This document shows, in pieces, positions 2,674 to 37,851 of a DNA stretch of 64,000 nucleotides (positions are counted from its first letter, which is position 1; every line of letters begins with the position of its first letter). The DNA is taken from the IMG/VR virus record IMGVR_UViG_3300029404_000062, one strand, 5' to 3'. The DNA comes from a virus. A program made the translations under genes and the position numbers. Under the pieces are notes generated by a model. That model did not search any database. It was not told where the DNA came from and saw only the letters and a list, made by a program, of their open reading frames with translations.

Positions 2674-4059
2674 TTAAACAGCGTAACCCTTGTTCTTAAT
2701 GACCTCCACGACCTGAGAGACGTACTTCTGGCAGGTGTCGTGGTCGGGGGCTTCCACCATCACGCGCACAAGCGGCTCAGTGCCGGACTCACGGACGAGG
2801 ATACGGCCGGTATCGCCCAGTGCTTCTGCAACGGCCTTGACGGCCTCCTGCACCGCCGGGTCGTTCTGTGCGGCCTTTTTGTCGGTGACGCGGACATTCT
2901 CCAGAACCTGCGGATAAATCTTCAGGGGCTCAGCCAGCTTGCTCATAGGCATCTTCTTGGCCAGCATAACTTCCATCATCTTGAGACTGGTCAGGATGCC
3001 GTCACCGGTGCTGGCGTACTTAGAGAAGATGATATGACCGCTCTGCTCGCCGCCGATACGGCAGCCGTTCTTAGCCATGTACTCGTAGACGTACTTGTCG
3101 CCCACAGCAGTCTTAGCGTAGCCAATGCCCTGCTCATCGAACGCCTTGTAGAGGCCAAAGTTGGACATAACAGTCGTGACTACGGTGTTGTTCATCAGCT
3201 CGCCGTGCTCCTTCATGTAGCAGCCGTAGATGTACAGAATGTGGTCGCCGGTGATGACATTGCCTTTCTCGTCCACGCACAGGCAGCGGTCAGCATCGCC
3301 GTCGAAGGCAAAGCCGACATCCAGACCGTTCTCCACCACAAACTTCTGCAGACCCTCAATATGGGTAGAGCCAGCATTGTTGTTGATATTCAGGCCATTG
3401 GGCTTGTTGTTGATAACATAGGTATCTGCACCCAGAGCATCGAAAACACTCTTAGCGATATTCCAGCTTGCACCGTTGGCACAGTCCAGACCGACCTTGA
3501 CGCCTTTGAAGGAGTAGATACCCAGAGAAATCAGATAACCCATATAACGGTTGCGACCTGCCACATAGTCCACCGTACAGCCGATGTGCTCGCGATGGGC
3601 AAAGGGCAGCTCCGGCCAGTCCTTATCAAACACATGAAGCTTGCCGTCGATGTAGTCCTCCACCAGCAGCAGAGTCTCTTCGGGCATTTTCTCGCCGTAG
3701 CAGTCGATCAGCTTGATACCGTTATCGTAGTAGGGGTTGTGGCTGGCAGAGATCATGATGCCGCAATCGAAATCGTCCACGCGGGCAATGTAAGCCACAG
3801 ACGGCGTAGTAGTGACGTGCAGCAGGTAGGCGTCTGCGCCGGAAGCGGTCAGGCCAGCGACAAGACTATATTCAAACATATAGGAGCTGCGGCGGGTGTC
3901 CTTGCCGATAACGATACGGGCAGGCTCGCTGTTGCCGTTGCGCTTGCGGAGCATATTATAATACCAGCCAAGGAAGCGGCCAACTTTGTAGGCGTGGTCG
4001 GCAGTCAGATCAATACCAGCTTCACCACGGAAGCCATCAGTTCCAAAGTACTTTCCCAT
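2674..4059 (-). CDS. glmM: Phosphoglucosamine mutase-like phosphohexomutase.
   Basis: N-terminus MGKYFGTDGFRG and active-site loop GIMISASHNPYYDNGIK (phosphoserine motif) are GlmM hallmarks. Product is ~460 aa. In-frame upstream extension of ORF 2674-4122 ignored; start at MGKYF has RBS GAGGTAA. Confidence 0.75.
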   Translation of the reverse strand: MGKYFGTDGFRGEAGIDLTADHAYKVGRFLGWYYNMLRKRNGNSEPARIVIGKDTRRSSYMFEYSLVAGLTASGADAYLLHVTTTPSVAYIARVDDFDCGIMISASHNPYYDNGIKLIDCYGEKMPEETLLLVEDYIDGKLHVFDKDWPELPFAHREHIGCTVDYVAGRNRYMGYLISLGIYSFKGVKVGLDCANGASWNIAKSVFDALGADTYVINNKPNGLNINNNAGSTHIEGLQKFVVENGLDVGFAFDGDADRCLCVDEKGNVITGDHILYIYGCYMKEHGELMNNTVVTTVMSNFGLYKAFDEQGIGYAKTAVGDKYVYEYMAKNGCRIGGEQSGHIIFSKYASTGDGILTSLKMMEVMLAKKMPMSKLAEPLKIYPQVLENVRVTDKKAAQNDPAVQEAVKAVAEALGDTGRILVRESGTEPLVRVMVEAPDHDTCQKYVSQVVEVIKNKGYAV

Positions 4060-4239
4060 TTCTTGATTACCTCGTTCCCAAAAGTGAACTTTTAATAGTG
4101 TATATGCTTTTCCCCGTCGCACGATGCTACCTGCGAAAAAGCATTGTCATCCGCATAGTGCATCGAATCAGGGACACTGTGAATTTAGTATAGCACAATT
4201 CTTGAAGCAAATCACCCTTTCTGCAGATTTTCTCCCTGC

Positions 4240-4292: not shown

Positions 4293-4402
4293 AAACTCAT
4301 TATCCTGTTGTCATACCGATCACAGCATATTCACACCAGCAAAGCCGGTATCAGCCGTTATTCAGCACGGCACCTCAAGCACTTTTGAGCGTAGAGCTGT
4401 GA

Positions 4403-4511
4403 TTAGCAGTTCTCAGCGAAGTACTTAATGGTACGGACCATCTGAGAGGTGTAGGAGTTCTCGTTGTCGTACCAAGACACGACCTGAACCTGATAGGTGT
4501 CGTCGTAGCTA
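4403..4511 (-). pseudogene. gap: 3'-terminal remnant (last ~36 codons) of the glyceraldehyde-3-phosphate dehydrogenase gene. The upstream body is absent and replaced by an AT-rich junction.
   Basis: Reverse-complement translation gives RSYDDTYQVQVVSWYDNENSYTSQMVRTIKYFAENC*, the canonical GAPDH C-terminus (VVSWYDNE, YFAE). Reading upstream hits an in-frame TAG at 4512-4514, followed by non-coding AT-rich DNA. Confidence 0.7.
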
Positions 4512-4845
4512 CGCTAAATTTTCACGATTTTTTTGTGATCGTTCATAATTTCGAAACAACAGTTACAGTACCACAGCATACCGTTGTCGTACCAAAACCG
4601 GCTTGTTCGTACCAAAATTATACCACGTTTAGGCGTTATTTTCAAGATCTTTCGCGATTTTGTGTTTTAGAATTATTCTATACATTTTACTTCTTTTTAC
4701 GTGCATATAATTTTCACATAGTATCGTGTACTCCTCGGAGCGTCCGGGACCCGGGGCTTCCGCCGGGGCGTTCGCCCTGCCCAGATGCGCTCCTCAGGGT
4801 GGGTGTGATGAGGGGTTGGATGATTCTGTTCGGTCTCCACGATCT

Positions 4846-5194
4846 CACGCTGAAGAGCATCGTACTGCTGCTGGGTGATCTCACCGTTGGCAAGCTGCTC
4901 ATTAGCCTGCTGTGCGGCAGTCTTCAGCGTTGCCAGCTTTTCCTTGGTGGCTTCAATGGCATCCTTGAGCATCTTTTGCTTCTGGACGACCAGTTCTGTA
5001 TTGGAGGGGTCCAACTTCAGGAGTTTGTTGACATCCTTCAGTCCGGACTGCGTCCCCTTGATTGACTTGTTTACACTTTCCAGTGCTTTGGAGAGCTTTG
5101 TGGTATCGCCGCCGATCTCAACGGTGATGCCCTGGATTCTGGATGCCATTTGCGTAACCACCTCCTCGCAGGCATGAAAAAAGCCCATCTGCAC
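4846..5194 (-). pseudogene. Duplicated 5' fragment of the tape-measure gene (first ~116 codons). ~96% nucleotide identity to 36010-36383, then diverges into an unrelated tail.
   Basis: ORF 4697-5194 translates to MQMGFFHA.EEVV..MASRIQGITVEIGGDTTKLSKALESVNKSIKGTQSGLKDVNKLLKLDPSNTELVVQKQKMLKDAIEATKEKLATLKTAAQQANEQLANGEITQQQYDALQREIVETEQN, identical to the TMP N-terminus at 30429-36383. Similarity extends 16 bp upstream of the ATG (GCATGAAAAAAGCCCATCTGCACG.AGCAGACAGGCTAAA). Confidence 0.8.
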
Positions 5195-5292
5195 GAAGCA
5201 GACAGGCTAAAGGAAAAAATGCTATTAGCTGTGTATCAAAGTCATCCTTTCAGCATACAATATATTTATCAGCAAATTTATCGACTAACCGG

Positions 5293-5321
5293 TTGATATT
5301 TTTGCAAACGTGTGCTATAAT
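5293..5321 (+). promoter_or_regulatory. Near-consensus sigma-A promoter upstream of the antitoxin gene.
   Basis: TTGATA, 17-nt spacer, TATAAT, followed by RBS AAAGGAG 10 nt before the ATG at 5348. Confidence 0.55.
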
Positions 5322-5347
5322 GCAATCAAAGAAAGGAGTTGACGATT

Positions 5348-5677
5348 ATGGCTTCTGTTATGAGTGCTATTACCAACACTGTTCCAATCACCCAATTCAA
5401 CCGTGGTCTTGCCGGAAAAATATTTGAAGATGTCAAGCAGTGCGGTGCCAAGGTTGTTATGAAAAACAATGCTGCCGAATGCGTTCTCATCTCCCCGGAC
5501 GAATATGTCCGTTTAATGGATGAATTAAATGATGCTCGTCTGCTGGCTGTTGCTTCTGAACGTATGGCACACTTTGATCCCACCTCTTTGATTTCTGAGG
5601 AAGAAATGAACCGCCGTCTCGGTGTTACAGAAGACGATCTCGCCGGTTTTGACGAGGTAGAAAGTCATCTTCCTTGA
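5348..5677 (+). CDS. Phd/YefM-family type II antitoxin, orphan: no cognate toxin gene follows.
   Basis: ITQFNRGLAGKIFEDVKQCGAKVVMKNNAAECVLISPDEYVRLMDELNDARLL matches the Phd/YefM antitoxin fold signature. The last ~8 codons run into the ParB-MTase gene fragment. Confidence 0.65.
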   Translation: MASVMSAITNTVPITQFNRGLAGKIFEDVKQCGAKVVMKNNAAECVLISPDEYVRLMDELNDARLLAVASERMAHFDPTSLISEEEMNRRLGVTEDDLAGFDEVESHLP

Positions 5678-5745
5678 CCTCCTTGCTGTGGACCTTGTTG
5701 AACAGGGTCTCAATCTCCGGCGGCTCAAAGGGATCAAAACTTCAG
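5652..5745 (-). pseudogene. ~95-bp internal fragment of a ParB-nuclease/DNA-methyltransferase gene (~88% identical to 60331-60425). Minus-strand translation ...PPEIETLFNKVHSKEVKEDDF.
   Basis: Direct nucleotide alignment of 5652-5745 with 60331-60425 inside CDS 59497-60765. Same orientation as the full gene. Confidence 0.65.
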
Positions 5746-5924
5746 CGTTTTGTATGAGTTCTCGGCATTTTCAGTTCATATAACTGTGAAATACAACCAA
5801 TTTCAGTGCCCTATATAGTGTGCAAAACAGGTTCTTTTCGACATTGCTACGTCAATATGGTTTGTTGAGTAGACATTTCTGGACTAAAAATGCGGCGGCG
5901 TAGTTGCTCGACAGGGGCGCAAAA

Positions 5925-6215
5925 AGCTCACTTATTGCGATATGTCGCTACATATCCGATTTTTGAGCATAAAAAAAGAAGCCGCCGATTATGGACGAAT
6001 CGACCGCTTCAAACTCCGTTTGGAGTAAAATGTTCACTTTTTTCTGGACAAGTGATTATTCTCACTTATATGGATTTTTAGTGATTATACTCACTTATTT
6101 TCGTCTGGATGATTCTATCACCCAGATATAAGGGTGCGTAAAAAGCTCACTTATTTTAAGTGAACATAATCACTTATTTTCAATAGCCGTAAGTGAGCTT
6201 AATCACTTATTTTTC
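5925..6215. repeat. Iteron-like array: at least 9 copies of (A)AGCTCACTTATT(TT) or its complement AATAAGTGA in both orientations within ~290 bp.
   Basis: Copies at approximately 5925, 6031, 6051, 6061, 6081, 6091, 6145, 6157, 6171, 6191 and 6203. The final pair forms inverted copies (TAAGTGAAC / GTAAGTGAGC). Confidence 0.6.
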
Positions 6216-6320
6216 ATGGTATGGGTCCCGCCCAGATGGTTACCTTCCGGCTTGCTAACAACTTAGCCTCCTGGATCGTGACCGTCTGGGCTGCTTTTTT
6301 CCTGCTTCGCCACACGCCCC

Positions 6321-6791
6321 TCACACTGCCCCACTGTCGCGTTTTATCGGCGAGGCCGAGGAACTTTCCGCAGCGGAGGTGTTTTCGCCACACAGGGGCT
6401 TTGTGGGGCTTTCGTCCAGAGCCTTTCCGTTTTCCACAAGGAACGGTGTACTCAGGTCAAAGCTCACAAGTTTTTGACCTGGGATGCTTTTCCCTTCCAT
6501 GCGGTAAGTCCTGCTCTTGTTCCAATGGGCATCCCGGTAGATCATCTGCACCAGTGCCTTGCACTTTATCTCACAGCTATTGCCTTCATTCAGCTTCGGC
6601 GTTTTATGAGAACCCACATCCTCGGCTGCACAATTCTGGACTGCCACTTGATTGGCCCGACGATTGTATAAAAAGCGATAATGTACCGGCCAGCCCAGAG
6701 CTTCCAAGGTGCTGCGGAAGATAGTGATCCTTCCATCCACCGCATTAAAGGTCATCCCCAGCATCCGCTGGTTCCATATTCTTTCGCTCAC
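6321..6791 (-). CDS. Stand-alone paralog of the serine-recombinase C-terminal domain (DUF4368-like), diverged copy.
   Basis: MTFNAVDGRITIFRSTLEALGWPVHYRFLY... aligns with rec1 residues ~415-520 (TIFNGKLRFNTACLKKFETVEYVELLL...) and with ORF 6843-7559. Confidence 0.45.
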   Translation of the reverse strand: MSERIWNQRMLGMTFNAVDGRITIFRSTLEALGWPVHYRFLYNRRANQVAVQNCAAEDVGSHKTPKLNEGNSCEIKCKALVQMIYRDAHWNKSRTYRMEGKSIPGQKLVSFDLSTPFLVENGKALDESPTKPLCGENTSAAESSSASPIKRDSGAV

Positions 6792-6842
6792 GTCTCTCCC
6801 CTCCTCAAAAATGGGCGCACTTTCCCCTTGGTATCGTTATGT

Positions 6843-7559
6843 TCAATCTGTTCCGGCACTCTGCCCGACTTCGGGGACCGCTTTCCCTGTCAGTATTCCC
6901 ATTGACACATATTCGTCCATCTGCTGAACTTCGGATTCCTTCAGATGTTCTTCTACAGGCACGCCAAAAGTACCCGCAATATCATCCGGGTAAAATCCCT
7001 TTCTGCTGCTTGCAGGCTTTTCTTCTGGTGTGTTATTCGGAGAATCGGCGGCACCTTTCTTCCGTCTCTGTCCTTCATGGAAAATCTCAGGCACGAGCAA
7101 ATCAAAGACATACAGGGTTTCACCCTCAAAGGTGATCCTGTATCCCAGCATCTTGTACCGGCATTCGCTATCCCAGCCCATCTCCTTATAGACCAGCTCG
7201 GCAAAAGGCTTGCAGGACATTTTTCTGCTCTTTCGCTTATCCGGTTTTGCAACGCACCAGCGCAGAGCGTCTTTATCATTTTCATCACAGCCGCGCACGA
7301 CAATTCGCTTCAAGTCACTGTTGAACATGACATGAACATAGACCACATCTTCCAGACCAGTAATGCAGGCCGTGTTGAATGTGATGCTGTCCTTGCGGAT
7401 CACGATGGCGGGGTCACGAAGATGAGCAAACAACTCTTTTCGCACGACCTGATATCCATCATACGAAAAGGTACTCTCCAGTTCTTCTGCTCTTGTGTCT
7501 CTATCATTTTGTTCTGCCTGCTCTTCTGATGGCAGAATTACAGTATTTTCCTCATTCAT
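6843..7559 (-). CDS. Stand-alone paralog of the serine-recombinase C-terminal domain (DUF4368-like). Overlaps the stop of recombinase 1 by 8 nt.
   Basis: YDGYQVVRKELFAHLRDPAIVIRKDSITFNTACITGLEDVVYVHVMFNSDLKRIVVRGCDENDKDALRW aligns along its length with the rec1 C-terminus (LTGYEVVRAQYFSTMQNPAMTIFNGKLRFNTACLKKFETVEYVELLLNSVDRCVAIRPCEKSNPNAIRW). Confidence 0.55.
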   Translation of the reverse strand: MNEENTVILPSEEQAEQNDRDTRAEELESTFSYDGYQVVRKELFAHLRDPAIVIRKDSITFNTACITGLEDVVYVHVMFNSDLKRIVVRGCDENDKDALRWCVAKPDKRKSRKMSCKPFAELVYKEMGWDSECRYKMLGYRITFEGETLYVFDLLVPEIFHEGQRRKKGAADSPNNTPEEKPASSRKGFYPDDIAGTFGVPVEEHLKESEVQQMDEYVSMGILTGKAVPEVGQSAGTD

Positions 7560-9393
7560 CTATTTCAGTCCATCCTTCCATTATCTCTTCCGCTTCATGG
7601 AGCAGCGCATTCAGACTATCTGCGGTAAATGTATTCATTTCTTCTATCTCTGTTGCCGGCCGAAGCACATCCCAGTTCCCGGCATAATGTTCCTGCTGTA
7701 AAATACCGACCTGCGCAATACTTGTGATTGGCTGTCCAAAAGTCCCTGCCCATTCCGGTGGGAAAATGTAAATCGTTTTTTTGACCGTTTCGCCCTCTGC
7801 TTCTTCCGAATTTTCCTTTGGCGGCAGAACGATTTCTTCAACCTTGATCATCTCCGGCTCGTCCAGTTCAAAGAGCATCAGCTTATTATCGCCGTCCTCC
7901 ACGAATTGCCCACGGAACCGATAACGCAGATCTTCATCCCACTCCATGATGTCAAAAAGAGTCTTTGCCAGACCACGGCAGCCAAGTGTGCTGGCACACC
8001 AGCGTCCTTCTTTCAGCCGACCCCAGCGGATTGCATTGGGATTGCTCTTTTCACACGGACGGATAGCAACGCAGCGGTCAACGGAATTTAACAACAGCTC
8101 CACATATTCCACAGTTTCAAACTTTTTCAGGCAGGCTGTGTTGAAACGCAGTTTTCCATTGAAAATCGTCATTGCAGGGTTCTGCATCGTTGAGAAATAC
8201 TGCGCCCGAACCACCTCATATCCCGTCAGGTCGAGCCGTTTTTTCACATCTGCCACGACAGAATCGTCCGGCTCCTGCATCACACTTTCGGATGCTTCCC
8301 GGTATTCTTCAGCCGAAAAGCCTGTCCAGTCCTTATCGAAAGGAACATATCCTCGCAGGATTCCATCATCAACCACGCTCAAAACCGGCAGTGGCCGATT
8401 TTTCCTCGTGTAACTTCTGGATGCTCTCAGGTGATTGGCAGCGTTGAATACATCTCTGGACACGATTGCCTCATGGTGGTCCCGCTGCCGATACTGCGTC
8501 CGATCATTGTTGTTTTTCTTGGATTTATGCGTCAAAAAATTTGGCGTGTAAGTCTTTCGAGCCAGTACATCTCCGCAATGACGCTCATTTGCAATGACAC
8601 CCGCCAATGTGCTCGGATTCCATTCCGTGTTCCCCGGCTTCGTCTTCCGCCCGTATTCCGTTAGGAGTTCTGCAATTTCCTTAAGAGAAAATCCGTTCAA
8701 GTACAGGTAATAAATCACCTTTACCGTCTGGGCTTCCTCTGGGTTGACCACCAGGTTGCCTTCCTCGTCCTGATCATATCCCAGCAGAGCCGGAGTCAGG
8801 AACAGACCACGGCTAAAGCGCCGGTCAATGGACCAGTTCATAATGATAGACTTGGAATGGGATTCTTCCTCTGCCACTGATGCCAGAATGGTAAGAATCA
8901 TGCGGCCATTGCTGTCCAACGTGTAAATATTGTCGGCTTCAAATTTCACACCTACAGGTGGTGTAAGGTTTTTCAGTGTTTCAATTACAGATAAGCAGTC
9001 TACGATATTTCGTGCAAAACGGGCAATGGACTTCGTAAGAACAAGGTCGATTTTCCCGGCCTTGCAGTCCTCAATCAACTGCTGCATTCCCTTGCGATGT
9101 TCCAGGGATGTGCCGCTGATGCCCTCGTCATCGTAGATGCCGACAAATTCCCATCCCGGCTGCGCCTTGATGTATTCAGTATAATAATTCTTCTGAAGCT
9201 CATACGAGGAAGTCTGTTCATCATTGTCAGTGGAAACACGGACATAGGCTGCGACACGCCGAATAGAGGTGCTTTCTTCAAGCCCCTCCACAGTTTTTGC
9301 CGGGATGACTTCCAGTTCAGAGGCATCCACGCCTTTATACCGATCTCTGATTTTTTGCTTGCGGTCTACCGCTTCCACTTCACTGCTTATCAT
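7552..9393 (-). CDS. Large serine recombinase 1 (resolvase catalytic domain + recombinase domain + zinc-ribbon + C-terminal DUF4368-like domain).
   Basis: N-terminal AAYVRVSTDNDEQ (catalytic Ser) ...KSIARFARN. 613 aa. Confidence 0.85.
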   Translation of the reverse strand: MISSEVEAVDRKQKIRDRYKGVDASELEVIPAKTVEGLEESTSIRRVAAYVRVSTDNDEQTSSYELQKNYYTEYIKAQPGWEFVGIYDDEGISGTSLEHRKGMQQLIEDCKAGKIDLVLTKSIARFARNIVDCLSVIETLKNLTPPVGVKFEADNIYTLDSNGRMILTILASVAEEESHSKSIIMNWSIDRRFSRGLFLTPALLGYDQDEEGNLVVNPEEAQTVKVIYYLYLNGFSLKEIAELLTEYGRKTKPGNTEWNPSTLAGVIANERHCGDVLARKTYTPNFLTHKSKKNNNDRTQYRQRDHHEAIVSRDVFNAANHLRASRSYTRKNRPLPVLSVVDDGILRGYVPFDKDWTGFSAEEYREASESVMQEPDDSVVADVKKRLDLTGYEVVRAQYFSTMQNPAMTIFNGKLRFNTACLKKFETVEYVELLLNSVDRCVAIRPCEKSNPNAIRWGRLKEGRWCASTLGCRGLAKTLFDIMEWDEDLRYRFRGQFVEDGDNKLMLFELDEPEMIKVEEIVLPPKENSEEAEGETVKKTIYIFPPEWAGTFGQPITSIAQVGILQQEHYAGNWDVLRPATEIEEMNTFTADSLNALLHEAEEIMEGWTEIDE

Positions 9394-9403
9394 GTACTTC
9401 CTC

Positions 9404-10381
9404 TCATTCTTCCGGCTTTATGCTCCAATACCACTGGCGCATCTTCCGATAGCTTCGGATGCCGAGTTCCTTTTTTGTATTTTCTGCGGTCCTGCGGCTG
9501 ATACCCTCGTCGCTCATCCGCATATAGATTTCCCTTGATCTCATGTCTCCCTCAGAAAGCAACTTTTTGATCAAGTATGCGGCTTTCTCGGACTTCGATT
9601 CAAAATCTGGCATTCCCGGATCTGCGGATGGATCTGGTGTAACCTCACACTCCAACCACTCAAATCCTGCTTCTGCTGTTATGGAGAACCGAATCTCACC
9701 GTCTGATGGAGCCAGACTATTTTTGATCTGCCGAACAATACGGATGTCTGTGTTTTCCGGGTCGCGCTCTACTTGCAGGACACTCCGGGCCGCAGCCACG
9801 ACATCAATACTGCCCAGGCTCCGGTACAGACCTTTGGTTCCTTCCTTTTTGTTGAGATGCCCAATCAGCACAATGGCACAATCATATACGGATGCCCACA
9901 TACCCAGCCGGTGCATCAACTTTCTTGCTCTGCCCGCAATCTGAAGGTCAGAATCGCTTCCAAGATATGCCTGAATCGGATCGATGACTACCAGACGCGG
10001 CCGGAATTCTATAATAGCCTGCCGGATGCGTTCATCATCCAGCGTCAGCCCGCTGTATGTATCTTCATTTATAAATGCCACATTCCTGCAATCCGCACCG
10101 CACTTTTCCAGTCTGGGCTTGATGGTATCTGACACACCGTCCTCCGAACACTGGTAGATGACTTTCTTCGGCATCCCGATTGGTTTTCCATCCGGGGTGT
10201 TCCCGCCTTTAGAAAGTTCCGCAATCAGGTTCATCATCATTGTGGATTTGCCATCTCCGGGATCTCCTTGCAGCAATGTGATCTTTCCAACTGCAATGAA
10301 CGGATACCACAGCCAGCGAACAGAAGTCGCCTGTACATCACTATATAATGTAAGAATTCCTGTTTCACCTTTTCCTGCCAT
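9404..10381 (-). CDS. RecA-like P-loop ATPase (AAA_25/RepA-like) with C-terminal DNA-binding-like tail. Co-operonic with recombinase 1.
   Basis: Walker A GDPGDGKS and Walker B-like RLVVIDPIQ. Start at MAGKGETG has RBS GGAAAGGAAAG. Its stop lies 11 nt from the rec1 start. Confidence 0.6.
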   Translation of the reverse strand: MAGKGETGILTLYSDVQATSVRWLWYPFIAVGKITLLQGDPGDGKSTMMMNLIAELSKGGNTPDGKPIGMPKKVIYQCSEDGVSDTIKPRLEKCGADCRNVAFINEDTYSGLTLDDERIRQAIIEFRPRLVVIDPIQAYLGSDSDLQIAGRARKLMHRLGMWASVYDCAIVLIGHLNKKEGTKGLYRSLGSIDVVAAARSVLQVERDPENTDIRIVRQIKNSLAPSDGEIRFSITAEAGFEWLECEVTPDPSADPGMPDFESKSEKAAYLIKKLLSEGDMRSREIYMRMSDEGISRRTAENTKKELGIRSYRKMRQWYWSIKPEE

Positions 10382-10631
10382 CGTCTTTCCTTTCCATTTG
10401 CAGTCTTTTCCTACATTTATATTATAGAGAATGCGTGACGATTTGGCTTCCACCTGTCAGGTGGAGTAACACCAAAAATTCCACTTGTCAGATGGAAAAA
10501 TCGCCTAAGACCACATTACCGATGGAGGTGCGGACTATTGCGGTCTTAGAATCTCCTATATTCAGTTGCTATGTGCATCTTCCTGCGAGATAATCGAACT
10601 GCCTTATGCGGGTATCATAAGGAGGAAACAC

Positions 10632-10973
10632 ATGGCAATCGATTATATCGCACTTGGACAGCGCATTAGCGATTTTAGAAACAAACATAATTTTTCACAG
10701 GAGGAGCTTGCTTTCCGCAGTGGCGTTGGAAACAAGCATATCAGCAACATTGAACTTGGAAAAGGAAAACCGAGTCTGGAATCTCTCGTCCAAATTGCAA
10801 ACGTTCTTAATGTATCCGCAGATGACCTGCTAGTGGACAGCCTTACACACTCTACTTCCACTGCTGACACGGAGATTCACCGTCTGCTCTTAGACTGTAA
10901 CGCAATCGAACAGGAGATTCTCACCCGGATGGTAAAGGAGATGAAAGCAATCCTCTACGGTTTGGGAATCTGA
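10632..10973 (+). CDS. XRE-family helix-turn-helix transcriptional regulator.
   Basis: FSQEELAFRSGVGNKHISNIELGKGKPSLESLVQIANVLNVSADDLL is a classic HTH_3 motif. Only plus-strand gene in the island. Confidence 0.7.
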   Translation: MAIDYIALGQRISDFRNKHNFSQEELAFRSGVGNKHISNIELGKGKPSLESLVQIANVLNVSADDLLVDSLTHSTSTADTEIHRLLLDCNAIEQEILTRMVKEMKAILYGLGI

Positions 10974-11134
10974 TTTTGTAACCCGTTGACCACATAACAA
11001 AAAAGCCCGCATAAGCCACAGCTGCACTTCGGCTCAAACCGGGGTGCTGTCTGTGGTTCATGCGGGTCAGGGCAAAAAAAGGAGCCCGCCAGCGTACCAT
11101 GTAGATTCTACACAGTGCGCCAGCGGGCAAAATT

Positions 11135-11653
11135 TCACTTCAATAGATCAGACAGACTGTATTCTCCCTTCGGAATGTTTGCAGTTCTCCGATATTCCTT
11201 TATTGCACTTATCAATGTTTGTGGATTACTGAAATAGTCCTTTACAAAATCATATGACTTCACATCATGCATACGCAGATCCGTCTTACAAAATTCGCTC
11301 GGTTTCTTCCCAGAACGCTTAAACTTGTCATAAGCTCCTTCACTATGGATGATCAGCATTTCTATTTCTGGTGCTGTAATGATATTTATGACATCAACCT
11401 TATGTTCGTAAGCCTTGCTAAGACGAAAATCTTCTCTGCGAGAATCCAAAATCCGAATCACGGAAATTTGGTCATCAAAGCCTTTACGCAAGTAACGCTC
11501 CTCAAATCGCTTTGCACTTCGGCAGCGGATAACACTTTCGTCCAGCATTTCTTCCCTTGAAAAAATCAAAAGGTCATTATCCACAAGAATATCAATAATT
11601 GCGGACTCTGCAGAGCCCTCGCATATACACGCTTTATATTTTGCTAATTTCAT
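11135..11653 (-). CDS. Small DUF4276/RloB-like (TOPRIM-related) protein, partner of the AAA_21 ATPase.
   Basis: N-terminus KACICEGSAESAIIDILV resembles the xLVEGxTEExFV TOPRIM-like start of DUF4276 proteins. 172 aa, low GC (~38%). Separated from the upstream ATPase gene by 13 nt. Confidence 0.45.
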   Translation of the reverse strand: MKLAKYKACICEGSAESAIIDILVDNDLLIFSREEMLDESVIRCRSAKRFEERYLRKGFDDQISVIRILDSRREDFRLSKAYEHKVDVINIITAPEIEMLIIHSEGAYDKFKRSGKKPSEFCKTDLRMHDVKSYDFVKDYFSNPQTLISAIKEYRRTANIPKGEYSLSDLLK

Positions 11654-11665
11654 TTCGCCGCCTCC

Positions 11666-12817
11666 TTAGTGTATTGAAGCAGCCAAATTTTTCTTCAAGC
11701 GCATATATGCCTCATATGCAGGAGTTGTTCCCTCAAGAAAACCGCTTTGATAGGCATCACTCTTTTTAATGTCATTGCGCTTTAAAATATTGCTCAAGTT
11801 ATCAGCTGTGATTCCGTTACGGTTTCTAACGATATAGATTCCATCATTTCGGTCATATTCATCCAGCAATTCTGGATAGTGCGTTGTAAAAATCAGTGTT
11901 CCACCGTTTCTGTTCAAACGGCTATCCATAAAGAAGCGTACTAAAGTCGTGACAATTTCTTTATTAAAATGGTTTTCGATTTCATCCACCAGAAGGTATC
12001 CACCGGACTGAAGAACCTCTTTTACCATTGAAAAAGTAATGATACCCTTGATTGTGCCGGAAGACAGATACTGTTCAAGATCCACTGCATTGTTCAAAGT
12101 GATCTCATCTTCACCCTTAAATTTCAGGTGAATAAAGGTTTTTCCATCTGTTTCTTCAAAACACAATTTTTCAATGGTCGGATCAAGAAAAGCTATCACT
12201 TCGAGTGGGATGTCATCTGTAAATGGAAGGACATTCACATTTGTATAAGAAAGCAGGCTGAATACTTCAACCTTATCATTTGTCTTTTTATTATGAGCAA
12301 TAATCAAGCTAACATCGTCCGGAAGGAACGCTTCATCATTATTCCGAACTGCAGCCGGCTCTATTCCGGTAAAATCCGTCAGATATTTTTTCGACTTTAC
12401 GCTGGCAATCGGTTTCTCCCACATTTTTTCGGCCAGAATAGAGTAATTATAATCTCCCGCTTTTGCTTTCTTTGCCACAATCACAGTCTCCAGGCAGCAG
12501 ACGTATTTGCGTTCATCATAAAAATATGTGCGAATCGTTGCCTTCTCAGTTCCTCCAAGAATGCTCTTTGCTTCCACATGATTAATGGGCTCATTTTTAA
12601 CAATGCTCAAGGCCAGATTGATAACTTTCAGCACGGATGTTTTTCCAGACGCATTGATGCCAATAAAAGCACAAGCGGAATGAAGGTAGTAATTATCCTT
12701 CATCCTATACAGGCGATCTTTATCATCCTCACTTACACGCTGTTGGGTATAAAAGCAGATATCAAGATCTTCCTTAAACAGTGGAAGTCCTTGTGCCGTG
12801 ATACGAAGTATTTTCAT
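11666..12817 (-). CDS. AAA_21/ABC-type ATPase (OLD/AbiL-like ATPase component).
   Basis: Walker A GINASGKTS, Walker B LLVDEIENHF, followed by TTHYPELL (H-loop). 383 aa, low GC. Confidence 0.65.
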   Translation of the reverse strand: MKILRITAQGLPLFKEDLDICFYTQQRVSEDDKDRLYRMKDNYYLHSACAFIGINASGKTSVLKVINLALSIVKNEPINHVEAKSILGGTEKATIRTYFYDERKYVCCLETVIVAKKAKAGDYNYSILAEKMWEKPIASVKSKKYLTDFTGIEPAAVRNNDEAFLPDDVSLIIAHNKKTNDKVEVFSLLSYTNVNVLPFTDDIPLEVIAFLDPTIEKLCFEETDGKTFIHLKFKGEDEITLNNAVDLEQYLSSGTIKGIITFSMVKEVLQSGGYLLVDEIENHFNKEIVTTLVRFFMDSRLNRNGGTLIFTTHYPELLDEYDRNDGIYIVRNRNGITADNLSNILKRNDIKKSDAYQSGFLEGTTPAYEAYMRLKKNLAASIH

Positions 12818-12914
12818 TTTTCAATCCCCCTTCTAAAAACGGCTTTTCCGTTTTTATTTTTCACTATTCTTATTATACCCCACCTAAAAGAAATTATCAA
12901 CGATTTTTCCGTTT

Positions 12915-13316
12915 TTATTTTCTTCTATATCTCAAACTCCGGTAAGCATCCTGTATGAAGCCCACAAACTCAGGACTCATCGTCTCCACGATATGTTTGC
13001 CGTCCACCCCTCGCAGCATCTCTACGGCGATCTGCGCCACATCGCTCTTGTCCTGTTCCATCCGTCTCAAAGCATCTGCCACCGCCTCATCAATGAACGC
13101 AGCGAGCTTTGCTCCTTCAATAATGCTTTGTACCGGCATCGGTGCGCCATCTTCACCCGCCAGCCGGATGACTTTTGGTTCTATGATCTCCCCGATCTTA
13201 CGCAGTGCTTCATCCTCCGGCATCTGCCGCAGATACCCTTTCATGGTGCTTACGACCATTATCTCCAGCGGTGTTGTCCCGTAATCCTCAACGGAAAGCC
13301 ACGATAACCTTTTCAC
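12915..13316 (-). CDS. Hypothetical protein (133 aa).
   Basis: ORF only; no recognisable motifs. Confidence 0.3.
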   Translation of the reverse strand: MKRLSWLSVEDYGTTPLEIMVVSTMKGYLRQMPEDEALRKIGEIIEPKVIRLAGEDGAPMPVQSIIEGAKLAAFIDEAVADALRRMEQDKSDVAQIAVEMLRGVDGKHIVETMSPEFVGFIQDAYRSLRYRRK

Positions 13317-13410
13317 ACTATCCTCTCCCTGCTATGTGTATTTCTGTGTACCCACAACATATAACAGGACTCTGCACATAGCAACCAAATTTTTCCGGAT
13401 AAACGGAAAC

Positions 13411-13460
13411 AAAAAAGGCCCTGCCAGATGCAGTTTTGAGCCACATCCAGCAGGGTCGTA
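13411..13460. terminator. Bidirectional rho-independent terminator downstream of recombinase 2.
   Basis: Stem GCCCTGCCAGATG...CATCCAGCAGGGTC with T-runs on both flanks (TATTTTTT on plus, TTTTTTGTTTCC on minus). Confidence 0.55.
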
Positions 13461-13518
13461 TTTTTTCTCACATTATGCTGTTCGTCTTATCGTTGGTTTC
13501 TTCAAATAGTGTTTTTTC

Positions 13519-15819
13519 TCACACAGCTTCTCCACGTTCCCGTTTTGCAGCGGTCGTCAGATACCGGCGATACTGGATGCTGAAGCCATGCACTTTGTAC
13601 GGTGCATCCACATACACCACCGTACCGTTGAGGTCGCTCCGCTTGAATCCCATGAAGCTGGTCAATGTTCTGCGATTGCCCTTCGTCGTCAGCGTTACAC
13701 CGAAGTTCGTCTTGTAGGTGATGATATCGCCCTGCACCACTCCACTCTCGATGAAGGCGCAGTAGATACCTTTCTCAAAATGAAGCATATCTGGGGATTC
13801 GGCGATTCGCTCTGGTGTCAGCTTCAGCTTGCCCTTGGTCACAGCGGACACTCGCCCTTCAATGACCTTACCGTCCACATCTCTCAGAAGACTTCCCTGC
13901 ACATCCAGTCCGTTGACCTTCAGCGGCATTCCGGCCGCGTTGGTATCCGGCAGTTCTTTCAGGCAGGCAAGGAAATATTCAAAGTTCTTCTTCATGATCG
14001 TCAGCACACCCTGCTCTGCCTCGATGGTCTGCTGCTCATGGCGAAGCGTCTTGATGCGCTCCCGCAGGTCATTTACCAGCTCTGTGTAGATTTGGGCCTC
14101 CGAGCCTTCCTCTGCCGAAATCTCATAAAAGGATGCTCCGATGCTGTTCGGGGTCAGCCCGTTCCGGATGTCCGTGTCGATGTCATCGATTGTCACCTCG
14201 CCGTTGGAAAGGGCATCCTTCAGTTCCGCATTATCTTCCAGAGCGGCTTCCCGCAGGGCTGCCACCTGATGGCTGACTGCATCCTGCAGGCGTTCTTCCA
14301 GTTCTTCGATCTGAGAATTCACCGTCTGAAGCCGCTGTACCGAGATGCTGTTGTTCTTTGCCTGCTTCATCGCCTGTTCAAAAGCGTTGTCGAACAGGGT
14401 CACGATCATGGATGCATCGCCGTGCTGTTCGTAATCCCGCTTCATGCTGTAAAGCAGTTCCATGAAGCTCTGCTCCAAAGCGCATTCATAATAGGTTTCA
14501 GAAGGACACCGTTCATTGGCGGCTTTCTTTTCCGCATCCGACATACATCCCTTTTTGCTGCGACAGTACATTTTCTGGTCGGGGCTGCCATTCTTGGGCG
14601 GTGCGTCCTGCCGTTCTCCTGCCTTCCGCTTGCACTTCCAGACAGGATAGGAATAGCTGTACTTTTCGAGGAATTCACCCGTATCCTCCCCTGTCGCTTT
14701 CAGGCTCCTCTCATCCGTGTAGCCATTTGCCACGCCAGTGTACGTCACACGAAAGAATCCTTCACCACAGGGCTTTCCGGCATCCGGTCCATGCTCAAGG
14801 ATTGCCCCACAGCGCAGATTTCCAAAAGGTGAGCCTTTGATGGTGCGGGTCTTTTTCTTTCCGGGACCTTTCGTCATATCCGTCCGGGGCTTCTCGAACA
14901 AAAGCGTCTGCACCTTATCCCAAGTCACCCGGTCGATGATGCCTACATGGTGGTTCTTGACATAGTACCGGGGTGCTTCACCCTTATTGATGCTGGAACG
15001 GTGTGTCAGGAAATCCTTCGTGATGGTCTTCTGCATCTCCACATCGCCTACATATTTCTCATTCCGCAGAACGATCAGGATGGAGCTTGCCCGCCATTTC
15101 TTTCCGTTCACAGTCGTCTTTCCCAGCTCGTTCAATTCTTCTGCGATTTTATTAGCGGTCTGCCCCTTCACGAAGCGTTCAAAGATGTACCGCACCACCT
15201 GCGCCTGTTCCGGTACGATCACCCACTCCTGATTCGGTCCCAGATCATACCCCAGCATCCGCTTCAGATTGATATGCGGAACGCCCGCCTGGAACTTCTT
15301 CTGGATACTCCAGCGGATGTTGTCCGAAATGGAACGGCTCTCATCCTGTGCCAAAGCGGAAAGGATGGTCAGGATCAGCTCGCCTTTGGCATCCAGCGTA
15401 TCGATATTTTCCTTCTCGAAGTACACACCCACAGGCGGCTTCAATTGCCGAAGCTCACGGGTACAGGTCAGGGAATCGATCGTGTTTCGTGCGAATCGGG
15501 AAATGGACTTCGTGACAATGTAGTCCAACTTGCCATCCATCGCGTCCTTCATCATGCGGTTGAATTCCTCACGGTGCTCTCTGTTCGTGCCGGATTTAGC
15601 TTCATCGGCATAGATGCCTGCAAAGATCCATCCAGGTTTTCCTGTAATCAGGTTCTTGTAGAATGCTTTCTGGGTCGTGTAGGATGTCTGCTGGCTTTCA
15701 TCGCCAGTGGACACGCGGCAGTAAGCCGCCACACGGATGTTCGTCTGCTGTTTCAGCTGTCCGCCATTCTGCACTGATCGCACACTGGCAGGGATCACGT
15801 CTACTTTTCTCTGTGCCAT
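13519..15819 (-). CDS. Large serine recombinase 2 (766 aa).
   Basis: AAYCRVSTGDESQ...KSISRFARN resolvase domain; long recombinase/zinc-ribbon/coiled-coil C-terminus. Confidence 0.85.
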   Translation of the reverse strand: MAQRKVDVIPASVRSVQNGGQLKQQTNIRVAAYCRVSTGDESQQTSYTTQKAFYKNLITGKPGWIFAGIYADEAKSGTNREHREEFNRMMKDAMDGKLDYIVTKSISRFARNTIDSLTCTRELRQLKPPVGVYFEKENIDTLDAKGELILTILSALAQDESRSISDNIRWSIQKKFQAGVPHINLKRMLGYDLGPNQEWVIVPEQAQVVRYIFERFVKGQTANKIAEELNELGKTTVNGKKWRASSILIVLRNEKYVGDVEMQKTITKDFLTHRSSINKGEAPRYYVKNHHVGIIDRVTWDKVQTLLFEKPRTDMTKGPGKKKTRTIKGSPFGNLRCGAILEHGPDAGKPCGEGFFRVTYTGVANGYTDERSLKATGEDTGEFLEKYSYSYPVWKCKRKAGERQDAPPKNGSPDQKMYCRSKKGCMSDAEKKAANERCPSETYYECALEQSFMELLYSMKRDYEQHGDASMIVTLFDNAFEQAMKQAKNNSISVQRLQTVNSQIEELEERLQDAVSHQVAALREAALEDNAELKDALSNGEVTIDDIDTDIRNGLTPNSIGASFYEISAEEGSEAQIYTELVNDLRERIKTLRHEQQTIEAEQGVLTIMKKNFEYFLACLKELPDTNAAGMPLKVNGLDVQGSLLRDVDGKVIEGRVSAVTKGKLKLTPERIAESPDMLHFEKGIYCAFIESGVVQGDIITYKTNFGVTLTTKGNRRTLTSFMGFKRSDLNGTVVYVDAPYKVHGFSIQYRRYLTTAAKRERGEAV

Positions 15820-15861
15820 AATTGCTCCTTTCCGCCGATCCTCTTCCGACCGGCTCTCGCT

Positions 15862-36453: not shown

Positions 36454-37851
36454 TTACTTGTAAAGGTCTTCCAGCGTTATCAGCCGAACTTCACCTCGCT
36501 CTTGTGCCTGAAGAAGTCCATCTGTGAATCCGCCTTTCGAGAAGATATAGTAGTGATAGTTGTTGCCCTTTCCAAAAACTGAAGCATAATCCCGAATCAA
36601 ATCGAGTTCATCCACACCGATTTTCTCATTCCGGTATTTGCATGAACCGATGATATAGTCTTTGCCCTCAACAGGAGTTCCGACGATATCAATCTGTATC
36701 TGCTTTTTCTTCTTCGGGTCTGTCCCCCACCACTGGCCGATTTCACTCAGCTCAATAGGAAGGCTATCCGAATAATAGAGCAGGTAATCCTGACACATCT
36801 TCTCATAAATTAGACCCATGTAATCAGGAAGATACTGCTTTACAGCGTGTGGATAGGTCTTTGCAATTCTGCCAGAGTCAATGGCACTCATATTGATTGG
36901 CACAAACCGATACCAGAAACGGAAGAAGTTATCAGCCAGCAGATAGATGGTTTTCTTACCCGGTTTTTCTGTAATCGGTGTTTCTTTCTTCGCAATGCCA
37001 AGGTCGATCAGCGTTTTCAGGTACTTCGATACGACCGAGTTTTCCTCGCCGACCTTCATCTTGATATCGTTCATTCGGGAAGCACCTTCTGCAATCGCTT
37101 TAATGATTGCATTATAAATGGCCGGCTCCCGGAGTTCCTGCTTCAGTAAGTTCCCCGGTTCCTCATACAGATAGCTGGAGCGGTCAAAGAAATTATCCAA
37201 CAGAGCTTCATCCACACTATCTCGCACATCCAACTTATTGATATAGTGGGGAACTCCTCCCGTGATTCCATAAATCAGGGAATTGTCTTCTGCAGACAGA
37301 TTTGGGTGGAACACAGCGGTTTCTTTATAGTCTAGCGGCTCAATCTTAAACTGTCCAGTACGTCTGCCATACAACGGACTTTCCTTTCCAAGCACCTGAC
37401 TCTCCATGAAGCTCATAGAGGAGCCGCAAAGAATCAGGTACATCTTGGACTCTGTCCATTTGTGGTCGATGATGTGCTGCAGCATCGCTGAAATAGCTGG
37501 TTTTGCTTTTGCAAGATAAGGATACTCATCAATGACAAAGACAATCCTCTTTTCCTTTGAAAGTGCTGTCAGCTCATCCAAAGCTGCATCATAGGACCTG
37601 AACTCCGGTGCAGACTCCATATCCGGCCGCTCAAAACTCATAATCGACTTTGAGAGAGCTTCCAGATTTTCCTTTCCTGTCGTGTTCAATGCAGAAAAGA
37701 AAATGGTAGGCTTATCTTTGCAGAACTCGTTGATCAGTGCCGTTTTACCAACACGCCGTCTGCCGTAGATGACAATGCACTCAAACTTATCACCTGCATA
37801 CCGTTTATTCAGTTTCCGCAGCTCATCCTCACGGCAATAGAATTGACTCAT
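36454..37851 (-). CDS. AAA+ ATPase of the COG1672 type (Arch_ATPase domain + C-terminal DUF234, predicted nuclease-like). Low-GC moron inserted between the tail chaperones and the TMP.
   Basis: Walker A GRRRVGKTAL, Walker B VFVIDEYPYL. ~44% GC against ~57% in flanking phage genes. Own promoter and terminator. Confidence 0.7.
   Translation of the reverse strand: MSQFYCREDELRKLNKRYAGDKFECIVIYGRRRVGKTALINEFCKDKPTIFFSALNTTGKENLEALSKSIMSFERPDMESAPEFRSYDAALDELTALSKEKRIVFVIDEYPYLAKAKPAISAMLQHIIDHKWTESKMYLILCGSSMSFMESQVLGKESPLYGRRTGQFKIEPLDYKETAVFHPNLSAEDNSLIYGITGGVPHYINKLDVRDSVDEALLDNFFDRSSYLYEEPGNLLKQELREPAIYNAIIKAIAEGASRMNDIKMKVGEENSVVSKYLKTLIDLGIAKKETPITEKPGKKTIYLLADNFFRFWYRFVPINMSAIDSGRIAKTYPHAVKQYLPDYMGLIYEKMCQDYLLYYSDSLPIELSEIGQWWGTDPKKKKQIQIDIVGTPVEGKDYIIGSCKYRNEKIGVDELDLIRDYASVFGKGNNYHYYIFSKGGFTDGLLQAQERGEVRLITLEDLYK

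Follow-up and report, generated by a model that had tools for sequence, protein, structure and literature searches.

At one end of a siphovirus-like prophage, within the 64-kb stretch of viral DNA analysed here (hereafter the window), lies a non-coding array of short repeated sites that recur in related elements, are confined to one arm of the element and sit close to its crossover. In our proposal the array serves as a platform for accessory binding, through which recombination at the crossover beside it would be modulated, and we would put the probability of this reading at roughly 45%. Its position by the crossover, the fixed distance of a one-armed repeat (the D box) just outside the recombinase half-site, the extra P' core half-sites interleaved with dyads in class I variants and the unusual proteins encoded next door favour the proposal; among the points against it are that the known large serine integrases are free of accessory sites, that one class of relatives is without the dyad repeats, and that the bracketing of the array by hairpins is compatible with a role in transcription.

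Genome engineers value large serine integrases because a protein directionality factor and a pair of short sites, attP and attB, are all that is needed. The module described here differs. A conserved site array abuts its crossover, and its genes encode an ATPase, three serine recombinases and two free-standing paralogues of the C-terminal domain of a recombinase; the contigs that carry it are attributed to Faecalibacterium, Blautia, Ruminococcus and other Clostridia. Should the array modulate recombination, serine integrases would have a second route of control, acting through DNA architecture, and a protein family of ~1,300 cluster representatives without annotation would gain a function. If it is just an operator cluster or an insulator at a prophage end, the outcome would be more ordinary, but would still offer a precise candidate binding motif and a regulator-site pair in common human gut prophages.

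The repeat array and its neighbouring genes

From about position 5879 to its right end the window is prophage, encoded on the minus strand, with genes for terminase, portal, capsid, tail, holin and lysin, and with three serine recombinases at the prophage end, of 782 aa (15862-18210), 766 aa (13519-15819) and 613 aa (RecC, 7552-9393). The last operon before the array, also on the minus strand, encodes an AAA_25 ATPase, RecC, p238 and p156. The array is flanked by p156 and, across the junction, by a gene pointing back toward it. The genes nearest the array are as follows.

6321-6791, minus strand: p156, a small protein paralogous to the C-terminal part of RecC; no gene of the module varies more, and its class tracks the arm class
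6843-7559, minus strand: p238, a second RecC C-terminal paralogue, 83-94% conserved in relatives
7552-9393, minus strand: RecC, a 613-aa serine recombinase with Resolvase and Recombinase domains and a novel C-terminal region
9404-10453, minus strand: AAA_25 (RecA/DnaB-like) ATPase, for which the gene callers of other contigs use an internal ATG (325 aa)
10566-10973, plus strand: XRE-type HTH_3 regulator, divergent from the operon, with three operators of its own at 10448-10526

A sequence-only reading of this DNA had placed the repeats just downstream of a serine recombinase and two paralogues of its C-terminal domain, and this location holds: by BLASTP, p238 matches the RecC C-terminus at E=3e-27, p156 matches p238 at E=5e-10 and p156 matches RecC at E=5e-7, the paralogous part of RecC being its C-terminal 200 residues. 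The DUF4368-like label that had been attached to these paralogues has to be dropped, as p156, p238 and the RecC C-terminus gave no Pfam match even at E<=10 and none in PHROG or NCBIfam; RecC gave no zinc-ribbon match either. The AAA_25 protein was weakly similar to the primase/helicase and DnaB-like helicase families of PHROG. The suggestion of a nested integrative element did not survive: the recombinase module is the terminal module of a large prophage, and, deletion variants aside, all the long contigs inspected carry it together with the other two recombinases. The stretch from the HTH gene to p156 was also considered as an independent small element and rejected, the tape-measure junction of one relative (L028) being an internal deletion that joins mid-gene.

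The repeats themselves are real and specific to this region. TCACTTAT has six exact matches, all within 5928-6210 (283 bp) and none elsewhere in the 64 kb, against a chance expectation of 1.16 over the whole 64 kb, and six were reached in none of 100 shuffles. Including degenerate copies, seven half-sites lie in the plus orientation (5928, 6034 (weak), 6062, 6091, 6147, 6170 and 6203) and four in the inverted one (6050, 6080, 6158 and 6191), in agreement with the at least nine copies in both orientations counted earlier. Spacings between half-sites, taken from the coordinates, are 33, 23, 56, 29, 29 and 105 nt for a unit of 8-10 nt, and TRF found no head-to-tail tandem repeat in the array. Repeat analysis and a gapped search identified the true repeat unit as a dyad, ATAAGTGA-N6-TCACTTAT (AAGTGA-N6-TCACTT), in which the GTGA and TCAC cores are 10 bp, or one helical turn, apart. 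Four such dyads (6050-6068, 6079-6097, 6157-6176 and 6190-6209) form two pairs with within-pair spacings of 29 and 33 bp, and every dyad is followed on the plus strand by a T-run (TCACTTATTTT). Besides the dyads there are three direct copies of the 23-nt, one-armed D box GGGGCGCAAAAAGCTCACTTATT, at 5914, 6020 (weak) and 6133, which in the gene direction reads AATAAGTGAGCTTTTT-GCRCC, that is, a dyad half-site followed by CTTTTT-GCRCC. A near-dyad with mismatches at 62596 is the sole other one that the gapped search returned in the window, so that the refuting condition set earlier, a motif common throughout the genome, was not borne out in the window. The array has a G+C content of 35% as against 52% for the window, its single open reading frame of at least 50 aa is a 63-aa frame, and gaps of 1, 2, 3, 9 and 12 nt separate relatives across it, all of which fits the non-coding, AT-rich DNA originally described. 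Listed from the crossover to p156 (classes I to III are the arm classes of relatives, defined below), the features are these.

5735-5874, no strand: remnant of the P' arm (the other phage end), outside the array; joined to the P arm, it gives an attP-like junction
5875-5878, no strand: inferred crossover region, ATTT on the plus strand and AAAT in the gene direction, with the P arm to its right and the P'-arm remnant to its left
5879-5913, minus strand: P half of the core attachment site (…GCATTTTTAGTCCAGAAA), read from the sequence; kept in all class I copies
5914-5936, minus strand: D box 3 (AATAAGTGAGCTTTTTGCGCCCC in the gene direction), core-proximal, 55 nt from the crossover; direct-repeat family D2
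5939-5956, no strand: short palindrome GATATGT-CGCT-ACATATC between T2 and D box 3, read from the sequence
5971-6010, minus strand: T2, an intrinsic-terminator-like hairpin with a T7 run, reading in the gene direction toward the crossover; terminator scan
6020-6042, minus strand: D box 2, degenerate (AAAAAAGTGAACATTTTACTCC), 70% identical to the reference copy; kept in class I relatives
6050-6068, no strand: dyad PAL4 (AAGTGATTATTCTCACTTA), from repeat analysis and gapped search
6079-6097, no strand: dyad PAL3 (TAGTGATTATACTCACTTA), 29 bp from PAL4, from the same two analyses
6104-6126, no strand: central inverted repeat TCTGGATGAT-TCT-ATCACCCAGA between the dyad pairs, with a TGAT-N3-ATCA core; from the sequence and a central hairpin in the folds
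6133-6155, minus strand: D box 1 (AATAAGTGAGCTTTTTACGCACC), which shares 91% identity with D box 3 and is found in classes I and II
6157-6176, no strand: dyad PAL2 (TAAGTGAACATAATCACTTA), from repeat analysis and gapped search
6190-6209, no strand: dyad PAL1 (TAAGTGAGCTTAATCACTTA), 33 bp from PAL2, likewise
6230-6300, no strand: T1, a long hairpin just past the p156 stop codon with a T-run on the plus strand; inverted repeat I2, terminator scan, fold and relatives

D box 3 directly abuts the recombinase half-site, the P core half and the P' half (TGTCTACTCAACAAA) form an imperfect inverted repeat, and the array as a whole is bracketed by the hairpins T1 and T2, both terminator-like in the terminator scan.

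The element end and its attachment site

Many metagenomic contigs encode a p156 identical to that of the window. Ten of these and the window itself give eleven copies of the element, which are near-identical up to ...GTCCAGAAA / ...GCATTTTTAGTCCAGAAA and then diverge, with at least five unrelated flanks beyond the element end, and because the identity of the 11 copies stops there, we place the boundary at 5875-5879. This point is ~40 bp left of the first repeat and the dyads are internal in every copy, so the array is not itself the crossover, which had been among the suggestions; by this comparison the array lies inside the element, in the prophage P arm, 36-335 bp from the inferred crossover.

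On the other side of the boundary, the flank in L024, L022, L036, the second arm of L041 and similarly L008 continues as TACGATAG, which in L024, L022 and L036 is in-frame UDP-glucose 6-dehydrogenase (ugd; codons YDS), with a Pfam UDPG_MGDP_dh_N match to the flank from profile position 93 onward (E=9e-12). A Lactococcus EPS plasmid has the reciprocal junction, GCACCGAC|AAATGTCTACTCAAC, in which GCACCGAC closes a truncated ugd and AAATGTCTACTCAACAAACC comes next. The 144-bp P' arm shares 91% identity with three Lactococcus EPS plasmids and ends at the same base beside the truncated ugd; it was the sole match when deposited phages and plasmids were searched by DNA similarity, and no copy of the array was found among them. 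P' arm sequence also flanks the element in L002, L003, L006, L009, L011 and L037, and L005 shares just the first ~27 nt of this flank. Together, the ugd flanks and the reciprocal plasmid junction place attB within ugd for these relatives, with a shared core AAAT and with TGTCTACTCAAC... as the P' arm.

The window's own junction is attP-like, the P arm being joined to 144 bp of P' arm (5735-5874), and it adjoins a ~1.5-kb remnant that retains an antitoxin gene of the Phd type along with a truncated gene for the tape measure. The P' arm has its own repeated motif, TACTCAAC. In class I variants, one or two extra P' core half-sites, GTCTACTCAAC, are interleaved among the dyads, and these copies tie the arm to the recognition sequences of the recombinase.

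Arm classes among relatives and the conservation of the sites

Relatives were gathered by an exact-pattern scan of viral contigs, p156 homologue look-ups, a one-genome-per-species scan and a profile scan of viral contigs. Those from the species scan were attributed to Faecalibacterium, Blautia, Ruminococcus bromii, Clostridium fessum, Acutalibacteraceae and Lachnospiraceae. Two MAGs with relatives bear the names Prevotella and Bacteroides.

The arms fall into three classes. Class I arms (the window's among them; p156 at least 78% identical) carry four to six dyads and three D boxes. Class II arms (p156 57-64% identical) have two D boxes and four dyads; the dyads form two pairs, with exactly 30 bp between partners and 80 bp from one pair to the other. 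Class III arms (p156 53-58% identical; L031-35, L044-50 and L077-81) carry no dyads, one perfect and one degenerate D box, and keep all five genes. The layout common to the three classes runs from the p156 stop codon through T1, zero to two blocks of dyad, dyad and D box, then T2, a short palindrome and a final D box, although the arm has otherwise diverged. In all three classes 40-55 nt (distances counted by eye) separate this last box from the crossover. A D box also follows T1 in class III, at a position equivalent to D box 1. T1 of the class III relatives has an A-run before it and a T-run after it and is bidirectional there; a hairpin with a T-run at the T2 position occurs in classes I and III, and in class II by eye; and a ATATGTAG element like the palindrome at 5939-5956 sits at the equivalent position in classes I and III. 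The TGAT-N3-ATCA core recurs in class I variants, with only a partial version in class II.

Among the genes, AAA25, RecC and p238 are 81-98% identical across all classes, p156 spans 53-100% with a strongly conserved N-terminal half, and the other two recombinases span 25-87%. As class III keeps the genes without the dyads, the dyads are dispensable and not essential for integration. In this comparison the D boxes are the constant part of the arm, and the dyads are an add-on in two of the three classes. 'Ca. Heliusvirales' NatCom phages, in which p238 is ~40% identical, have a different gene order and no dyads, so these distant relatives afford no co-variation test.

Functionally, the sequence-only reading had left three options side by side: a replication origin, a ParB-type partition site, and accessory sites for a recombinase. 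That these are specific recognition sites has been upheld, and arm layout and conservation favour the accessory-site option, whereas the origin and the ParB site found little support given the irregular spacing, the lack of a DnaA box and of par genes, and the dyad-free class III. As an origin, the array would supply iterons for an initiator loading the adjacent AAA_25 (RepA/DnaB-like) ATPase, and the excised element would replicate. Direct and inverted copies of one motif in AT-rich, non-coding DNA of 35% G+C would suit such a role, as would the weak primase/helicase and DnaB-like PHROG matches of AAA_25. Staphylococcal pathogenicity-island origins consist of two repeat sets flanking a central region, and the two repeat sets around a central region seen here may be likened to them. 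We nevertheless consider an origin quite improbable, since regular ~22-bp iteron spacing is missing, no DnaA box occurs in 5880-6320, no Rep, initiator or primase gene was found in the module, the AAA25 of class III is ~90% identical and yet accompanied by no dyads, and the module belongs to a large phage, whose own replication genes were not identified in the window.

A partition (centromere-like) site for a ParB-type or ribbon-helix-helix protein is the most improbable of the accounts that we weighed. Short repeats clustered in direct and inverted orientation would fit it, and a ParB_N domain is encoded elsewhere in the prophage, but this domain, the only ParB_N there, is fused to a methylase at 59497-60765, 53 kb away, and ParB_N-methylase fusions are common phage proteins. 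No parA/parB pair lies near the array, where the neighbours are the recombinase, AAA_25, the HTH protein and uncharacterised proteins; the element is an integrating prophage; and class III again is without dyads.

Where the arms can be aligned, it is the sites that have been retained. Between the window (class I) and L020 (class II), 78/86 half-site and D-box positions are identical (91%), as against 47/105 non-motif positions (45%), with 14/24 for the dyad spacers (Fisher p=1.5e-11). A frequency matrix of 59 distinct dyads gave the consensus AAATAAGTGA-N6-TCACTTAT, in which the GTGA core is invariant and TCAC is kept in 57-59/59, the flanks vary, the spacer is variable and A/T-rich, and the unpaired-side extension AAAT is conserved. 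Across 1.06 Mb of related loci, 239 of 250 dyads were clustered and 11 isolated, and nearly all loci had their cluster 100-450 nt past the p156 homologue on its downstream side, the exception being the second, truncated arm in L041. Judged from these alignments, conservation and confinement of this kind are the signature of protein-binding sites and not of RNA stems.

The dyads could in principle act at the RNA level, as hairpins serving as weak terminators, a structured 3' UTR or a small RNA, and the T-run after each dyad, the one instance in which the terminator scan scored a dyad half plus D box 1 as terminator-like, and the folding of both strands far better than shuffles (z = -8.0 and -9.2) all look compatible with this. 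We regard it as very improbable. The z-scores were set aside because repeated palindromes produce them automatically; the stems are A/U-rich with two G-C pairs; among the 59 dyads one-sided variants occur without compensation (AGTAA…TCACT, AGTGA…TCATT and AGTGA…TGACT); what is conserved is the sequence, including the AAAT on the unpaired side, rather than the pairing; and Rfam, at gathering and at relaxed thresholds, returned nothing relevant.

The main rival, which we hold to be rather unlikely, is an operator array, in which a phage or host repressor or activator on the dyads would control an arm promoter (that of a short transcript with its end at T2, for example) or stop read-through at the border of the prophage end and the host gene. 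The one-turn spacing of the cores and the distance of about three turns between paired dyads have the look of classical cooperative operators, the GTGA-N6-TCAC core resembles CRP-type sites, the array sits between T1 and T2, which are present in all arm classes, and dispensability in class III would suit a regulatory add-on. By eye, an extended -10-like TGATAGAAT can be made out on the minus strand between the dyad pairs, and TATAAT occurs in several dyad spacers. A sigma-70-type promoter scan of 5600-6900, however, found none, neither the class I variants nor class II preserve TGATAGAAT, no gene lies downstream of the array, no Rfam family matched, and the account leaves unexplained why a D box should stand at a fixed 40-55 nt from the crossover. 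Promoter candidates picked by eye were dropped, as they were not conserved across classes.

Candidate binders and comparison with known systems

For the accessory platform that we prefer, we envisage a single sequence-specific DNA-binding protein that would recognise AATAAGTGA across the array, with the dyads (ATAAGTGA-N6-TCACTTAT) bound by a dimer and the D boxes acting as one-armed sites of the same protein. The bound protein would then assemble a higher-order complex on the P arm, and this complex could modulate site-specific recombination at the adjoining crossover, in efficiency or in direction, much as arm or accessory sites do elsewhere. Protein binding, the identity of the binder and the effect on recombination are what we infer from the arrangement and conservation of the sites. 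The likeliest binders would be p156, p238 or the C-terminal region of RecC, all encoded next door. A binder of the D box would be expected in every class, as the box itself is, and any conserved protein of the module, or the conserved N-terminal half of p156, would fit. Against p156 as the single candidate, p156 is 57-64% identical between classes I and II and the dyads are unchanged, so that the data do not single it out. The binder may also be a host regulator, judging by the likeness of the core to CRP sites.

The HTH_3 protein, which had been proposed as a binder, was rejected in this role: its operators, three copies of the palindrome TTCCACCTGTCAGGTGGA at intervals of 31 and 30 bp within the divergent promoter region of the regulator (10448-10526), differ from the dyad, and the dyad is absent from the HTH_3/AAA25 intergenic region. 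A likeness to the heptad of the pSM19035 omega protein, WATCACW, was likewise rejected, as only some half-sites match and the architecture differs.

A bolder scheme, which we hold to be doubtful, is that serine-recombinase integration here uses arm-type sites outright. In it, the novel domain that p156 and p238 have in common with the C-terminus of RecC would bind the AATAAGTGA dyads and D boxes, making RecC a 'heterobivalent-like' recombinase and the stand-alone copies of the domain directionality or specificity factors, and the variable p156 would serve as an adaptor matching a near-invariant AAA25-RecC-p238 engine to different arms and cores.

In the literature searched, no description of the gene module or of the array was found; serine-recombinase triplets are reportedly mentioned in papers on integrative conjugative elements of Streptococcus. 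What can be compared with known systems is an arrangement in which repeated candidate protein sites lie within a few hundred bp of a crossover, inside a mobile element, and in which the sites are conserved while the surrounding arm has diverged.

Regulatory sites of the CI/Cro and CRP kinds share with the array their dyad symmetry, with cores one turn apart and pairs about three turns apart. A CRP-type site is TGTGA-N6-TCACA; its GTGA-N6-TCAC core and spacing are the same as here, whereas the outer position in our dyads is A and not T and a conserved extension, AAATAA, is present. Unlike CI/Cro/CRP clusters, the array has no evident promoter or regulated gene, and the XRE repressor of the module has other operators. 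Iteron origins of plasmids and satellites (RepA/pi-type, pathogenicity-island ori) are alike in placing directly repeated and inverted copies of one motif within AT-rich DNA close to a helicase-like gene, and differ in that the array is without regular phasing, an initiator gene or a DnaA box and is dispensable in relatives.

Integrases of the phiC31, Bxb1, TP901-1 and SPbeta type need no flanking sites and obtain directionality through a protein-protein interaction with a recombination directionality factor, and phage serine integrases are not known to use arms or extra sites. The minimal attP of phiC31, Bxb1, TP901-1 and SPbeta SprA is like the site described here in its imperfect inverted repeat around a short core (AAAT in our case), in the integration into a protein-coding gene (here ugd) and in the recombinase gene at the prophage end; it is unlike it in that three recombinases and a conserved site array stand beside the core here. 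For characterised phage large serine integrases, minimal sites of <50 bp and no accessory sites are reported (PMC1470463). An arm platform would be unprecedented for this family, because its known members need no accessory DNA.

Small serine resolvases and invertases, with res II/III of Tn3/gamma-delta, Sin site II and the Hin/Gin enhancer, belong to the same enzyme family and have dimer-type inverted and direct repeats by the crossover, and their accessory arrays control the topology or direction of the reaction. The res accessory sites differ in being bound by the HTH of the recombinase and in carrying the crossover-site motif, whereas the core half-sites here (TTTTTAGTCCAGAAA / TGTCTACTCAAC) do not resemble the dyads; the array is, moreover, ~300 bp long as against ~120, and lies 1.3 kb downstream of RecC, not upstream. 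The attP of lambda-like tyrosine integrases also has repeated short sites in non-coding arms around a core, inside the phage end and by the int operon, the P' arm here too having a repeated motif, and the part that those sites play in assembly and directionality is the part that we can only propose for ours. Lambda-type P and P' arms are bound by the Int N-domain, Xis, IHF and Fis; no homologue of the Int N-domain or of Xis was found here, and the array differs further in that its recombinases are serine enzymes, its dyads are missing from one class of relatives and its sites are putative. Although membership in neither group can be claimed, because lambda arms belong to tyrosine integrases and the accessory sites of resolvases share the crossover motif, which is not so here, lambda-type attP, with its arm sites, and the small serine resolvases, with their accessory sites, offer the closest functional analogues of the array.

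Junction and left flank of the prophage

The P arm, the non-coding phage end that carries the dyads, joins the P' arm of the other phage end instead of host DNA, and the junction, at 5875-5878 (within 5735-5895), is attP-like. Beyond it lies a remnant of about 1.5 kb (4300-5874), followed by host DNA, with these features:

5339-5677, Phd-type antitoxin gene, in the remnant
4697-5194, truncated tape-measure N-terminus, in the remnant
2674-4122, glmM, a host gene, past the remnant

Taken together, the arm-to-arm junction, the remnant and glmM suggest tandem or accreted elements. Two tandem arms, ending in ugd (the UDP-glucose 6-dehydrogenase gene, attB in some relatives), are found in the related locus L041. 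A 144-bp stretch of the P' arm (5735-5878) shares 91% identity with three Lactococcus EPS plasmids (3001-3144 in L001, the Lactococcus lactis plasmid NZ_CP087605.1), where it stops at the same base as in the window and the adjoining ugd is cut off at the same codon. This plasmid stretch appears to be what is left of a related element in a distant host, one of the Bacilli and not the Clostridia.

Sequence motifs in and around the arms

The P' core half-site GTCTACTCAAC occurs in three to four copies, in both orientations, in the P' arm (L001 positions 2538, 2776, 2879 and 3130), and is found within the P arm, beside the dyads, in variants of class I, the window's own arm class:

12843-12910 in related locus L022
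3520-3590 in related locus L036
10590-10660 in related locus L060

The exact 11-mer is also present within the window's 782-aa recombinase gene (17973-17983). Directly 3' of the stop codon of p156, a small paralogue of the C-terminal region of the serine recombinase RecC, lies a long hairpin (6230-6300), the stem of which is kept in relatives although the sequence changes; its version in class III, the arm type that has no dyads, is a predicted bidirectional terminator, with an A-run before and a T-run after. A whole-window search for the DnaA-box-like 9-mer TTATCCACA (≤1 mismatch) returned 23 sites against 11.9 expected, about twofold (23 was reached in 0 of 100 shuffles), and none of these lay in the repeat array. 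An 18-bp palindrome, TTCCACCTGTCAGGTGGA, unrelated in sequence to the dyads, occurs three times (10448-10526) at spacings of 31 and 30 bp in the DNA that separates HTH_3 from the divergently oriented AAA_25 gene, and this arrangement is that of a classic three-operator switch.

Mosaicism and distant versions of the recombinase module

Comparison of 6321-18210 with the related loci L053-L090 revealed strong mosaicism: the AAA_25 ATPase, RecC and its paralogue p238 remain 81-98% identical even in those relatives in which identity drops to 25-45% for the remaining two recombinases and to 53% for p156. A conserved "engine" seems to have been joined to recombinases, an arm and a core that vary. The cargo slot between the recombinases (11135-12817) is variable: in the window it encodes an AbiLi-like AAA_21 ATPase (PADLOC E=2.5e-31) and its 172-aa partner, and in relatives it holds MerR-type or other genes. 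A PDC-S27-like ATPase (DUF234) is encoded in the tail region (36454-37851), and this gene and the AbiLi-like one are probably both defence genes carried by the prophage.

In the related locus L086 the module is distantly similar to the window's (RecC 34% and p238 31% identical), and no dyad array follows its third gene. Directly after that gene stands a near-perfect palindrome of 45 bp, CATCACGTCCACTTGGTCGTAT-A-ATACGTCCAAATGGACGTGATG (6973-7017), possibly the site at which this version of the module recombines. Cultured-community gut phages that bear the label "Ca. Heliusvirales" (INPHARED records PV036411.1, PV036435.1 and others; L091, L092) also encode homologues of p238 and RecC (~40% identity). 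Every gene of their RecC module is annotated as hypothetical, and the module and two further recombinase genes, one annotated as "integrase" and one as "DNA invertase", are convergently oriented.
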